A stretch of DNA of 60,383 bases, counting the filler, from Hausera hauseri (taxonomy: Eukaryota), in assembly GCA_046269625.1 (NCBI GenBank). It is 12 parts of 12 records of this genome, joined end to end, with 100 filler letters (N's around TTAATTAATTAA, not from the genome) between each part and the next. Parts side by side here need not be neighbours in the genome. Positions count along the whole stretch, not along the records: positions 39,403 to 45,308 come from JBJURY010170862.1; 11 more parts are not named here. One strand, given 5' to 3'. Positions 39,403-43,742 of this stretch are shown piece after piece (position 1 is the stretch's first letter; each line of letters begins with the position of its first letter). Position numbers and translations under genes: made by a program. Under the pieces are notes generated by a model. It made no database searches. It was given only the letters and a program-made list of their open reading frames with translations, and was not told where the DNA came from.

Positions 39403-40946
39403 CGACAGATACTCCTTACGTTACAACTGCAATCATCCTGTCCAAATACCTTTTGGCTAAGTAGTTTTCATTATTCAGTCCATAATCAAATTCCATACCT
39501 AATAGCAGGAATAAGGCAAGCCCCAGAACGCATCCAGTTTATTTCCTTTAAACCATTGGACATTTATGTACAAGTAAGATCTGATCGTGTAATATTCAGT
39601 TTGCCAGATCCTGACTTTATTGTCACATTGGAAAATACAAATGACGCCTGTTTCTTGATTACTAGCACACACGTCGAGTGCGCTCAATTAATATCAGGTT
39701 ATCCTTACCTGGCCCACATTCAGTTGCCTTACTATGATCCACTACGAAGATTGAAAACAGTAGCCCTATTCGAAGTCACTACATTCAAAAAGGAGTAAAT
39801 TCGTTATTCAAATTCCCTACGCTCAATGACATAATGAAAAGAGTAAAATTTGCATTCAGAATTTCTACGGACACCCATAAAGATAACGGAACATTAAATA
39901 GCATGTTGCCATCTATTGAGCCACTACAACGACTCCAGTCAAATTATAATAAGCTTTTACTGATCGTAATTGTATTGCCCACCAGCATTATACTTGTTAT
40001 AACAGTAATTATTGCTATATGTATATAGAAGTGTAAACATGGAAGAAGAAACTTATTCCGTCATGAACCAACACTCAATTACACCAGACAATTCGAAATT
40101 CCTTTGACCAACTTAGATTATGACCTCAAACTTTATGGCGCCAAAAAATGGTTATCGAACATAAAAGAAGAAGAATATTATCCCTACGTTGAAACTCATG
40201 AGGAACAAACTCTTCCAAGAGCAGAACGATATATGTTGGGATGTACAAACGAACCAACAGATACAGTAGAATATACAACAGTCAATAAAGCTGGAACAAC
40301 TCCATTAATGCTAGCAGTAGCATCCGGAAACGAAGAAAGAGCTAGAGAAGCTATAACCCAATTAGGCGACAAAGCTGCTGAAGCGTTGAAATTCCAAGAC
40401 ACAAATGGAAATACTATCATTCATTTGGCCATCATGAGTGAGTGCCACGATTTCTTCATACTTATGCTCATCCAATCACAAGCACCATTACACATACCTA
40501 ACGTCGACGGAGATATAACTTTACTACTCGCCATACTACACGGTTGACATAATTTGGCAATCCTGATATTCGATTATGCCTACGACAATAAAGTATTTCA
40601 GGCTATTTTCCAAACCCAATTACGTAGTACACCGTTACATCATGCAATAGTCTTCAAACTATTCCTCTTATTGGAAATCTTCTTAAATAAGAAATTCAAT
40701 AATGGAACTTACTTATTCGACGTAAATTATGCTCATGGATCATACGAAGAAACTCCTCTTATAACCGCGCTTTTAACTCGAACCTATGGGGCAGTCTCCA
40801 TCCTGATGCGACGACCAGATATTCGACCAGAGACTCATAACTATCGAAACCTGACCATTAATGATATTCTGATGCACGATCCTATGACCAGCCCTTACGA
40901 ACGTGAACGATTGTTGGCCATAATGCGCCGCGAAATCGTGTTATAA
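39403..40946 (+). pseudogene. Single-pass membrane protein with cytoplasmic ankyrin repeats (Notch-like architecture), decayed
   Basis: ORFs 39834-40028, 40104-40547 and 40554-40946 share one frame, separated only by TAG (40026) and TGA (40545). TM LLLIVIVLPTSIILVITVIIAICI then KCKHGRR; ankyrin motifs GTTPLMLAV, GNTIIHLAI, GDITLLLAI, STPLHHAI, ETPLITAL. An upstream open frame (39403-39798) is the probable ectodomain. Confidence 0.75.
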
Positions 40947-41163
40947 ACGTACATTGAATACTTTACTAACCCTCTATTCGTGTGTATATATTTTGTTATG
41001 ATCCTTATTTCTAAATATCTCTATCACCTGTTTATTGACTTGTTCTGATACATATGACTTCTAACATTTTATGTCGTGTAATCACTGTATATAGTTTACA
41101 TTTAATGTTTTATTGTTATTCTGTTTTGTTAATATTCATCTAATGTTAATAAATTTTATCATC

Positions 41164-41677
41164 ATGTTTTGTATTGAGACTGGGAATAGAGCCTTGTATT
41201 GATTCGCAGACTTTTTATGACGCCGTAGCATCCTGCCTGAGTGTGGATCAATTGCATAATGTTTTTCCCGGTTGGACAGCTATCCAAAATGACTTAGAGT
41301 CTGGGAAATTACAGCTTCATCCCGGACAGATGTGTGTGCAACAAACATTATCTGGTGTCACCGGTTCATTATCTCAATTGATTCTTACTGATCAACCGCA
41401 AGAATTCAATGTTATTGCTATTCATCTGATCAGTGGCAAATTAACTGTTAATGTCGATTTTGGTGATCCTGTTTTTGACATTAATTATGAACTGCTCGAT
41501 GATTCTAGTGTAATTGTTACAATTCCCCCTATTAAATTGTTGTCTTTTGCTGTTTCTTCTTTAAACAGTTGTATGTGTGCTGTGGAGGTGACCCAGCCAA
41601 AGCTCGTATGCGACCGTAGTGAGGACTGTGACCAGCTAGTCCATAAACCACTAGTACCAGTAATAGATACTCTTTAA
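41164..41677 (+). CDS. Hypothetical beta-rich segment, probably N-terminal part of the exonuclease-RING polyprotein
   Basis: 167-aa open frame overlapping the exonuclease frame (open from 41647), consistent with a frameshift. Confidence 0.4.
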
Positions 41678-41688
41678 TACCAGAGGGA

Positions 41689-42255
41689 GTGTCTCTACCG
41701 GATTTAGATCCCTTATTCACCTTTGTCGCATTTAATTGCATTTCCACTCAGCCTAGTTCGACGGCCGTCAACCAGGCTATTATAGATATCGCTATATTAG
41801 GCTGCAGAGGCGAAATGTTATTGCAACAACAGGTGTACCCCCGACATGGGGTCATCGATTGGAGGGCACCTTTTGCAGGTATAGCGGATGATCTCACCCT
41901 GAATAAGATAGACAAAGAAGATTTCTTGCCTCTCATGCGGGATATGTTGAGGCATAGATTTATTATGGCAACACAACTAGATCTAATATTGTGCTCACTG
42001 AAATTACCTGCTACCATTACTAATGATTTTTTCGGTCTTGGTCGCCACCCTATCGCTGTAAACTTTTCAGCAGACCCAGTGCTCATGGTTCGTTTGAGTG
42101 AGCAATTACTACATACCACCATTATCCCTACATATACTTCACCATTAGTTCAAGCCCATCTACTTGGACAATTGTATAATCTTCTGTCAAATTCATTGTA
42201 TATTGAAGATACTGACAATATAAATCATAATGTCATTAAGTTAAATCTTAGTTAG
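41689..42255 (+). pseudogene. REX4/ISG20-like DEDDh exonuclease fold lacking catalytic acidic residues
   Basis: FVAFNCIS..DIAILGCRGEMLLQQQVYPRHGVIDWRAPFAGI follows VALDCEM..RVSIV..G..LYD.YV.P...VTDYRT..SGI; LVRLSEQLL..II..YTSPLVQA follows LK.L....L...IQ..HSS.EDA. Confidence 0.65.
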
Positions 42256-42282
42256 CCCTACTTATTTTTGGATCTCCCACAG

Positions 42283-42408
42283 TGCATGTTCTGCAGAGTA
42301 ATCCTCAACGAGCTGTACAGATTAACACCATGTCTACATATGGTTTGTATATTTTGTATAGAGCGAATACGATCACAAGCCCATCCTACACCTTATTGCC
42401 CTGTTTGT
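42283..42408 (+). CDS. RING finger 1 (C3HC4)
   Basis: CMFC-x11-CLHMVCIFC-x12-CPVC; same frame as the exonuclease, after a single TAG. Confidence 0.85.
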
Positions 42409-42579
42409 ACATATGAAATCAAATATTGTATTCATCATGAGGCATATCCATCTGACGCCGATCAATCATTACTAGACGCCCAAACCTTTGAAGTTATTGA
42501 ACCATCTGACCATGTTACCTATTACTACACTTGAAATATAACAACCCCTTTCTCTATTCCATATTTTCAATTACACATG

Positions 42580-42698
42580 TGTTGTCTATGCCAAAAACCT
42601 AATAGAATAGCCTACCAATTTAGCTGTTGTAATGCCGATACTGTGCCCATTGCTATCAAATAGAATCCCACCATCGATATTTAATCTGTAGCATATGC
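42580..42698 (+). pseudogene. RING finger 2 (frameshifted)
   Basis: CCLC..FSCCNAD / CAHC..ICSIC across a 1-nt frameshift near 42645. Confidence 0.55.
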
Positions 42699-43190
42699 TA
42701 TTTTTGCCCTCAATTCATTTACTCGTATTTTCATCATCCCAGAAGAGCTCTCCTTACTATTACTAATACACCAATTCCTCAAATACTTCCAACAAGATAC
42801 TTTCGGCTAGAACAACAAGCATCAGTTTGAATCGAATTCCCAATTCATAAATTTGACCCTTCTACAATAACTAGACCACCACCAATTACTTTTCAGACAC
42901 CTTTACCTCATATCAATGTTATGACCCTTTTACGACAACCATCTTCTATACCACATCCACGTTATCATCCTGAAAGAGTTACTAGATCGTTGCCTGAATT
43001 ACCAGTACCTGTACCCGCAATAATACCTACACCAACTATTTCTTACAGTCCACCACTACCAATATCCTTACAAGAAGATTGGTTTCCTGTCCTCAATAAA
43101 TGTCCAATCGACCTTATATCTGACCTAGCCCCTCCTGATCTATGGGCAACATTACAATCTTACTACTACGATCAACTTCCTACCTATGAA

Positions 43191-43355
43191 TGTACTATAT
43201 GTCTTACCGAGTGAATAACGGTGGTTTAGTTTCAATGTATCCATACATTTTGTACAACCTGTTTCAACAAACTCCGTTCTCAGTCCCTCAAATCGATCAA
43301 TCCAGAAGACGCTCTTCAAATGACCTTTCAAAATGGAATTTCATGTTCCTATTGC
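43191..43355 (+). pseudogene. RING finger 3 (C3HC4, two in-frame stops)
   Basis: ECTICLTE*ITVV*FQCIHTFCTTC...ISCSYCR, one frame joining ORFs 42921 and 43320, preceded by a Pro-rich linker. Confidence 0.7.
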
Positions 43356-43522
43356 CGAAAAACAACAGTCTACTACCATTTTTCCTATACCTACGACAAC
43401 CGTACCCAACGACTATGCCATTGGATGAACCCGATAAATGATGCAACACTGATCATCAGACCCAGAAATCTCAGTTTTATCGATGCCAGTACCCAGTGTA
43501 ATCCGGAGGACCGAATCCTTTT

Positions 43523-43545
43523 AAAAGGGGGAGAAATTTTGACGC
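43523..43545 (+). promoter_or_regulatory. Candidate polypurine tract and 3' LTR start
   Basis: GAGGACCGAATCCTTTTAAAAGGGGGAGAAAT then TTTGACG, one mismatch from TGTGACG; non-coding sequence with AATAAA (~43719) follows. Confidence 0.5.
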
Positions 43546-43742
43546 TCTCTAGGCTCTCTAAACAACATATAAACATATAAACCTATAATTCGAGATAACA
43601 ACTCCTCGATATTTCGACCCCGAATAACCGAATTAACAACTGAAATTGATACCCAAACTAGAGGAACATTATTCGAATATTGACATTCTATGGACATTCT
43701 ATCATCAAAAAATTGGACAATAAATACTAAAATAACGTTCTG

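Follow-up and report, generated by a model that had tools for sequence, protein, structure and literature searches.

A decayed high-copy repeat of Hausera hauseri, probably a 3' block of three accessory genes from a large LTR retrotransposon

The locus studied here raises the question of whether a block of broken coding sequence of more than 4 kb, in which ankyrin repeats, an exonuclease-like domain and zinc fingers follow one another, is what is left of host genes or the cargo of a mobile element. The window, i.e. the whole stretch of DNA that was analysed (60,383 nt), comes from Hausera hauseri (assembly GCA_046269625.1), and its positions 39,403-45,308 correspond to contig JBJURY010170862.1. 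Co-oriented coding remnants were found on the + strand, on which all features described below lie, from 39403 to about 43540, in agreement with the original prediction. Every ORF is broken: ORF-A by two stops and one frameshift, ORF-B by one frameshift, and ORF-C by four stops and one frameshift. The strand is not A/C-rich, as had been stated, but G-poor (A 0.27-0.34, T 0.28-0.33, C 0.21-0.26, G 0.13-0.19). Tiny introns were considered as the source of the breaks and rejected, since the relatives described below align through the break sites without such gaps. Position 39403 is the first base of the contig, directly behind a 100-nt spacer, which means that ORF-A is cut by the assembly. A gag/protease region at 37800-39300 was rejected as an unproven part of the same element, as this spacer separates the two contigs. 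No second copy of the cassette is present within the window, and no RT, integrase, second LTR or TSD was found on the contig starting at 39403.

Copy number was gauged by the summed depth of matching contigs in run X1, a measure which is not an exact number of copies. The stretch is matched by 15,313 contigs, only 1,192 of which are at least 99% alike, and 61 records extend past its ends. The median bin depth is 12,926 over the 21 cassette bins (39403-43539) and 9.7 over the nine flank bins, a difference of about 1,300-fold which identifies the block as a high-copy repeat and not a host gene. That the remnants could be pseudogenes of single-copy host genes is thereby largely refuted and extremely improbable: all the domain types do occur in host proteins, but thousands of divergent contigs span the block, with no such depth in the flank, and the relatives align without the need for introns. 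The block is a decayed copy of this repeat, and we consider it probable that it formed the 3' accessory part of a large LTR retrotransposon, with three extra genes before a polypurine tract. Other contigs differ at two of the window's stop codons (40545 and 42534) and have indels at two frameshift sites (39791 and 42638), all among the 40 of 895 differences listed; at least these breaks are thus not family-wide. Related loci were found neither in viral contigs nor in JGI metagenome contigs or phage records, searched by exact short patterns or as prokaryotic collections, so that these negative results carry little weight.

ORF-A (39403..40946, delimited by translation and by alignment to the relative P0004) comprises a predicted ectodomain, one TM helix and cytoplasmic ankyrin repeats, and is interrupted by a frameshift near 39790 and stops at 40026 and 40545. 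The predicted single helix (39957..40025), followed by basic residues, reaches a Kyte-Doolittle 19-mer peak of 3.14, and the ankyrin region (40236..40943) is matched by Pfam Ank_2 in three stretches (E 5.5e-12). P0004 matches the latter range, is 78% identical to ORF-A over 236 aa without a stop, has an Ank_2 match of its own (E 1.2e-14) and ends at the place corresponding to the ORF's own stop at 40944. The resemblance to Notch that had been proposed holds for the topology only, namely type I with a single TM helix and, on its cytoplasmic side, ankyrin repeats, as in Notch receptors. Neither EGF nor LNR repeats were detected by Pfam in the ectodomain (131 residues present, the N-terminus being cut off), no WxP motif lies between the helix and the ankyrin repeats, and Notch is absent from the 36 PDB matches. 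The 131 ectodomain residues present gave no domain or fold match; a TIG/Ig-like fold, considered by eye, was not supported. ORF-A is followed by a T-rich (T 0.48) non-coding spacer (40947..41185) with AATAAA at 41148, which is part of the repeat (depth 2575 in bin 40979-41175).

ORF-B (41186..42255) was delimited by alignment to P0005, a relative with a single ORF of 349 aa, and consists of a beta-rich N-terminal domain (41186-41644) and a DEDDh-exonuclease-like domain (41716-42252), with the frameshift between the two; the respective parts are 54% and 57% identical to P0005. The exonuclease fold is putative and is indicated by three weak but concordant matches: PolC exonuclease (E 0.75) and ISG20L2 (E 1.5), both non-significant, and RNase_T clusters with an Atlas score of 0.81, where 10 of the 10 best family matches agree, which is a lead only. 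The Asp and Glu of the Exo I motif of PolC align with Asn and Ile in the window and with Asn and Val in P0005. The domain is likely a disabled exonuclease of an RNA-trimming type; of the "dead exonuclease" originally described the loss of the acidic pair is seen in both copies, while the fold matches are all non-significant. The AlphaFold models have a pLDDT of 34.5 (P0005) and 35.1 (exonuclease-like stretch). Foldseek found no match at E 0.001 for the former, and the best VIA-align Z was 5.5, on the beta-rich part of the same model; both results are uninformative.

ORF-C (42256..43542, its end placed at about 43540) was read from Pfam matches and from P0006, a relative of 383 aa which is 63% and 54% identical to its parts, and has stops at 42532, 42828, 43212 and 43227 and a frameshift near 42638. 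It encodes RING1 (42283-42408), a middle finger whose pattern is Cys-only (42580-42698, crossing the frameshift), a Pro-rich linker and RING3 (43191-43355). The three RING fingers that were predicted are more exactly two RINGs and a Cys-only finger: RING1 and RING3 have the canonical C3HC4 pattern (Pfam zf-C3HC4, E 4e-4 and 1e-4, near the cut-off), whereas the middle finger, as read in P0006, has at least eight Cys in RING-like spacing without the His, and has no RING match in Pfam or PDB. All zinc ligands are kept between the window and P0006 in the two fingers present in both.

The coding blocks of the two long ORFs originally described are real, but the second is split by the stop at 42253. 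P0005 begins at the residue that corresponds to 41186, and its last residue is the one preceding this stop; this common position indicates that there are probably three genes and not two. Long fused exonuclease-RING forms (574-2000 aa) were not found among 1460 homologue candidates, which is weak evidence. P0005 and P0006 appear to lie on one contig, judging from the equal size (3286) of their contigs. P0006 begins inside RING1, so that this relative is probably broken too and the common stop could be a coincidence. On balance we favour the stop as an old and kept feature, in which case ORF-C would be translated from a spliced message of its own or by read-through; the AG of the stop could act as splice acceptor for such a message.

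The domains could also have been captured from host genes and have hitch-hiked neutrally, without serving the element. The window copy is broken, the ENA relative probably is too, and rotifer ORF3s (discussed below) are described, in the available part of the source, as having no clear departure from neutrality (PMC5408684). The relatives of ORF-A, -B and -C nevertheless keep 236, 349 and 383 open codons at 54-78% identity, together with the zinc ligands mentioned above, and the exonuclease-like ORF has no close host parent among 1.84 billion representatives (1 match), which makes neutral capture very unlikely.

A further trait of the window copy is a tract at about 41180..42270 in which A residues of other copies and of the relative are replaced by G. 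All 16 of the differences listed between the window and other X1 contigs in 41160-42300 are A-to-G. Against P0005 the A-to-G balance is 34:12 (p 0.0016), compared to 20:25 elsewhere (Fisher p 0.006), the T-to-C counterpart is missing (8:8), and the purine balance of the tract has a p of 2e-8. The A-to-G version is itself present in X1, as an exact contig of 391 nt with a depth of 3.9. A 5' G neighbour is found at 12 of the 46 sites (four of them adjacent changed sites, leaving eight) and at 65 of 301 background A, a difference which is not significant. Such a clustered, one-strand tract points to an RNA stage, and probably about 1.1 kb of the sense RNA of this copy was edited in duplex by host ADAR, the edits then being fixed as DNA by the RT of the element. 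Clustered A-to-G transitions on one strand are likewise described, in the available part of the source, for the ADAR hypermutation of viral RNA, e.g. in Drosophila sigma virus (PMC5630973). There, the changes show a 5'-neighbour bias, whereas in the window this bias is not significant and the changes are fixed in the chromosomal DNA of a repeat copy.

The 3' boundary of the repeat is sharp. A polypurine tract of 14 nt, AAAAGGGGGAGAAA (43523..43536), overlaps the end of ORF-C, and the family homology ends here; when 39403-43700 was shuffled 2000 times, a purine run of at least 14 nt with GGGG arose in 9 shuffles. Depth falls roughly 1,500-fold, from 27,459 in bin 43343-43539 to 18.7 in bin 43540-43736, and is only 6-24 after the tract, i.e. 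the DNA is low-copy from 43540 on. A family LTR consequently does not match at 80% and none is seen, so that the A-rich stretch at the position expected for the start of a 3' LTR (43537..43737, AATAAA at 43719) is a candidate only. The last ORF had been described as ending in EDRILLKGGE at the tract; the peptide and the tract are present and the relative ends there, while the frame of the window runs on to 43580. Of the TG-starting 3' LTR that had been placed behind the tract, the TG is implied in the relative, while in the window the letters behind the tract begin with TT: the C-terminus of P0006, RGEKC (Glu-Lys-Cys), is in register with the K-G-E-K-F-stop frame of the window, which implies a TG directly behind the tract, as at the start of a 3' LTR. 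A purine tract followed by TG is a signature of LTR elements. The Gypsy copies cited as precedents within the window do not end their last ORF in such a tract, since ORF 18952-20835 stops about 16 nt before it and the copy at 36172 reads through (by eye).

The low-copy DNA behind the tract could mean that the cassette was carried by a retroelement that has no ordinary LTRs (Terminon/Penelope-like or DIRS-like), or by an LTR family with a very short or copy-variable terminal repeat, hence a common sequence which stops at the tract. Such an origin would account for the fall in depth within the first bases after the tract, but the purine tract with TG speaks against it and we regard it as unlikely. 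Non-coding parts also diverge faster, as the depth of the spacer at 40947-41185 is about one tenth of that of the ankyrin region, and a rare LTR subtype or a truncated single copy would therefore give the same low-copy picture. Terminons do carry DEDDy and TM ORFs (PMC6431247, and the available part of PMC5408684). The missing family LTR bears as well on a different origin, in which part of an integrated DNA virus or Polinton-like element was amplified. Large DNA viruses commonly carry ankyrin, RING and exonuclease genes that have poly(A) signals of their own, and the contig has no RT or integrase but does have a T-rich spacer with AATAAA between ORF-A and ORF-B; the best PDB match of RING1 is a herpesvirus RING, at an E of 0.011 only. 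This origin is quite unlikely: the homology ends in a purine tract which the relative continues with TG, and an RNA stage with reverse transcription accounts more readily for A-to-G changes on one strand of genomic DNA. The preferred reading, the 3' cargo region of an LTR element as originally predicted, thus has in its favour the high-copy mobile repeat, the end of homology at the tract and the TG of the relative; what it lacks is a family-wide LTR at 80% likeness after the tract. Probably the repeat is an LTR retroelement with its gag-pol upstream of 39403.

The cassette is likely a variant among cargo-laden LTR retrotransposons, Burro-like in spirit. Burro/GYPSM1 are giant Gypsy-like LTR retrotransposons of planarians with RING, ankyrin, BIR, MATH and BCL2 domains; like the repeat described here they have thousands of copies, and their ankyrin and RING-related domains have been suggested to influence ubiquitination and apoptosis in the host (PMC6431247). 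No BIR, MATH or BCL2 domain was seen in the cassette. The extra domains of Burro lie in or before a gag-env-pol polyprotein of 4,900 aa, while the cassette encodes its domains in individual frames which lie 3', next to the purine tract, its ankyrin ORF having a stop of its own, and section 7 of that source names no pseudo-exonuclease, TM-ankyrin or triple RING for Burro (PMC6431247). According to the available part of a second source, the DEDDy ORF3s carried by LTR elements of rotifers are as a rule expressed from spliced messages; the bdelloid Juno/Vesta elements and Terminons resemble the cassette in having an accessory ORF of exonuclease-like type downstream, and small TM ORFs occur in them too (PMC5408684). 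The rotifer ORFs, as described there, are of the DEDDy type with intact catalytic residues, whereas the domain in the window resembles DEDDh/RNase_T, is without the Exo I acids in two copies, and is fused to a beta-rich domain which is followed by three zinc fingers; the words "RING" and "ankyrin" have no occurrences in PMC5408684. The same part of that source mentions Maelstrom and EXD1, two members of the piRNA pathway that derive from DEDD nucleases and are catalytically inactive. Their nuclease fold has lost its catalytic acids, as is likely for ORF-B, and is used for binding. The analogy is functional only, since these are host genes and ORF-B is element cargo. No description of the combined set of TM-ankyrin, pseudo-exonuclease and triple finger was found in the literature searched.

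The three extra genes stacked before the polypurine tract (TM-ankyrin; beta-domain with a likely pseudo-exonuclease; triple zinc finger) would be predicted to act by binding and ubiquitin-tagging host proteins, not by cutting nucleic acid. We tentatively propose that the cassette may serve counter-defence. Its RINGs would bring in E2 enzymes of the host; its pseudo-nuclease, in the manner of Maelstrom and EXD1, would attach to RNA ends or to a protein of the RNA-silencing machinery; and its TM-ankyrin protein would hold a signalling factor of the host captive at the membrane. The fullest form of this proposal is speculative and rather doubtful as a whole, namely that of an invertebrate "complex" LTR retrotransposon in very many copies, which like a complex retrovirus would have three separately expressed 3' accessory genes, for an ankyrin decoy anchored in the membrane, a pseudo-nuclease and a triple-RING ligase. 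Together these would make up a module dedicated to countering RNA silencing or editing, and individual copies would preserve in their DNA a record of the attack by host ADAR. Few LTR retrotransposons are known to carry cargo for the control of the host (Burro and the rotifer ORF3s), and none is known to have a tested mechanism. The family described here adds a domain set to such cargo, in a repeat abundant enough for population-level tests of selection, and the A-to-G tract makes it possible to ask directly if ADAR restricts retrotransposons in the invertebrate germ line and if the cargo counters ADAR.

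The window is built of 4–6 kb contigs with 100-nt spacers (runs of N flanking a 12-nt linker), and the cassette occupies the contig at 39403–45308 from its first base onward, so that the gag and protease start on the previous contig (~37800–39300) were not taken as linked to it. Six-frame translation, together with read-through translation with X at stops, recovered three coding blocks on the plus strand. ORF-A (39403–40946) encodes 131 residues without a domain assignment followed by a transmembrane helix, basic residues and ankyrin repeats, and is separated by a T-rich spacer containing AATAAA (40947–41185, plus strand) from ORF-B (41186–42255), in which a beta-rich N-terminal part precedes an exonuclease-like part. 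ORF-C (42256 to the purine tract) carries two C3HC4 RINGs with a Cys-only finger in between.

The stretch is present in two sequencing runs, X1 (possibly the data from which the assembly was made) and X2, of which 15,313 contigs (1,192 at 99% likeness or more) and 1,738 contigs, respectively, aligned to it at 80% likeness. Summed X1 contig depth, which is not equal to copy number, was 324–38,461 (median 12,926) in the 21 cassette bins (39403–43539) and 6–24 (median 9.7) across the 9 bins past 43539, while exact-match X1 contigs in unique parts had a depth of 2–6. The cassette is a high-copy repeat which ends at the purine tract, and the contrast with its flank rules out a single-copy host gene. 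Since X1 depth is already high where the stretch begins and 61 records cross the stretch ends, the repeat likely extends upstream. As to whether the stops revert in other copies, other contigs deviate from the window at two stop codons and two frameshift sites (among the 40 of 895 differences and 12 of 18 indels listed), so these breaks are not shared by the whole family; the remaining stops, 42253 among them, lie outside the 40 listed differences.

The purine tract (43523–43536) is unlikely to have arisen by chance, comparable ones being found in 9 of 2000 shuffles. The C-terminus RGEKC of P0006, the natural relative of ORF-C, aligns in register with the window frame K-G-E-K-F-stop; as a Cys codon starts with TG, P0006 has TG directly behind the tract, which looks like the start of a 3' LTR, and the window copy has TT there. 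Speaking against an LTR start here, the window DNA from 43540 on is low-copy, its first bin being too shallow for family contigs to reach even a few bases into it. Either this copy underwent truncation or recombination where its LTR begins, or its LTR is of a rare type, or the LTRs of the family are short or variable. The 201 bases behind the tract, A-rich and with AATAAA at 43719 ahead of an 88-nt T-rich tandem pair, are only a candidate position of the 3' LTR. The tandem duplication itself (43738–43913) consists of T-rich 88-nt units that are 94% alike, one of which is skipped in one X1 contig. Further into the low-copy flank, an 88-codon frame (44427–44693, plus strand) may represent one exon from a small gene family; another version, ~80% alike over 44487–44721, occurs in an X1 contig.

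ORF-A is broken by a frameshift near 39790 and stops at 40026 and 40545. It has a strong predicted transmembrane helix (39957–40025), and its ankyrin repeats match Pfam Ank_2 (E 5.5e-12). The single relative in nature, P0004 (ENA assembly; 78% identity over 236 residues), is free of stops and terminates at the same residue. The likeness to Notch in the original prediction is one of topology only: ORF-A has no EGF/LNR and no WxP, and its 36 PDB matches include NompC, designed ankyrins, Kidins220, MIB1 and KANK1 but not Notch. For ORF-B, the sole match among 1.84 billion representatives (E 5e-60) was P0005, a single 349-aa frame uniting the beta-rich and exonuclease-like parts (54% and 57% identity). 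The exonuclease assignment is based on three weak, concordant results, namely PolC exonuclease (E 0.75; the alignment includes the Exo I strand), ISG20L2 (E 1.5) and Atlas RNase_T clusters (0.81). If this putative identity is accepted, the enzyme is likely dead, as first described: Asn and an aliphatic residue replace the Exo I Asp and Glu in both ORF-B and P0005, indicating a loss older than the split of the two. The last residue of P0005 is the one just before the window's stop at 42253, which suggests three genes instead of the two long ORFs first proposed, and this stop is somewhat more probably a kept feature than a lesion. P0006 (383 aa, ENA; 63% and 54% identity to ORF-C) preserves the ligands in the second and third fingers. 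It starts within RING1, however, so the relative is probably damaged as well, and the stop position it shares with the window may be coincidental. Of the three RINGs predicted, two are C3HC4 and the middle finger is Cys-only.

The cassette also holds a tract of A-to-G changes that the original prediction does not mention. All 16 of the 16 listed differences in 41160–42300 have G in the window and A in other copies, a class found at 155 of 794 places overall (enrichment p ~5e-12, the listed rows being a selection). Against P0005, single-base residue changes comprise 34 A-to-G versus 12 G-to-A (p 0.0016), with T-to-C and C-to-T at 8:8, whereas the rest of the cassette gives 20:25 for A-to-G versus G-to-A (Fisher p 0.006 against the tract). 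A/(A+G) in the tract is 0.55 versus ~0.70 (p 2e-8), and four sites were recovered by both contig differences and the P0005 comparison. The segment is present in the reads, as a 391-nt X1 contig (depth 3.9) matches it exactly. Clustered A-to-G change on one strand is described as an ADAR mark in the available text of PMC5630973, and such a cluster in DNA points to reverse transcription of a sense RNA that ADAR had likely edited. The segment could instead be a recombinant piece from a G-richer subfamily; the 5'-neighbour bias at the A-to-G sites is not significant.

Several other elements were observed in the window. A near-complete Gypsy at 19000–23749 encodes a DUF7041 gag, RT, RNase H and integrase; it is circularly permuted, its 77-nt ends are identical, and it is a collapsed repeat or a one-LTR circle in the assembly. 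At 23941–27197 (minus strand), a decayed Gypsy RNase H-integrase is followed by an in-frame env-like region with, by eye, a terminal hydrophobic stretch. In the contig 33709–39302, a decayed Gypsy RNase H-integrase with a final purine tract at ~36172 lies upstream of another Gypsy, represented by its gag and protease start. Fragments at 15089–17794 and 33166–33608 (both plus strand) presumably resemble Polinton-type DNA polymerase B and retroviral-type integrase; Pfam gave no match on 15089–16045. The intron-free 12192–12719 (plus strand), behind unrelated coding remnants, has what we take to be a resemblance to the Hsp90/GRP94 N-terminus and is a possible captured host fragment. We likewise take 45426–46122 (minus strand) and 47847–48245 (plus strand) to resemble a series of Ig-like repeats and a piece of a mariner-type transposase. 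Long ORFs in 1–5500 are spurious, due to a long degenerate CT microsatellite with gaps.

Burro, in the available text of PMC6431247, has ankyrin and RING-related domains within or ahead of the polyprotein, whereas those of the cassette lie in separate 3' frames; rotifer elements, in that of PMC5408684, have intact DEDDy ORF3s, unlike ORF-B with its missing Exo I Asp and Glu. The main text of the errantivirus survey PMC13524379 mentions no ankyrin, exonuclease or RING. A literature search covering few subscription papers, with Repbase-type records and supplements outside its scope, found no description of this domain set, nor of invertebrate genomes with retrotransposon copies edited by ADAR. 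Taken together, the cassette is likely part of a large LTR element carrying three 3' accessory genes. These would be expressed via spliced or read-through messages, spliced ones being the usual source of ORF3s in the text available of PMC5408684. A role in counter-defence is a more tentative proposal, in which the RINGs would act as an E3 ligase, the pseudo-nuclease would bind RNA or protein much like Maelstrom/EXD1, and the TM-ankyrin protein would be a tether that sequesters a host factor at the membrane.
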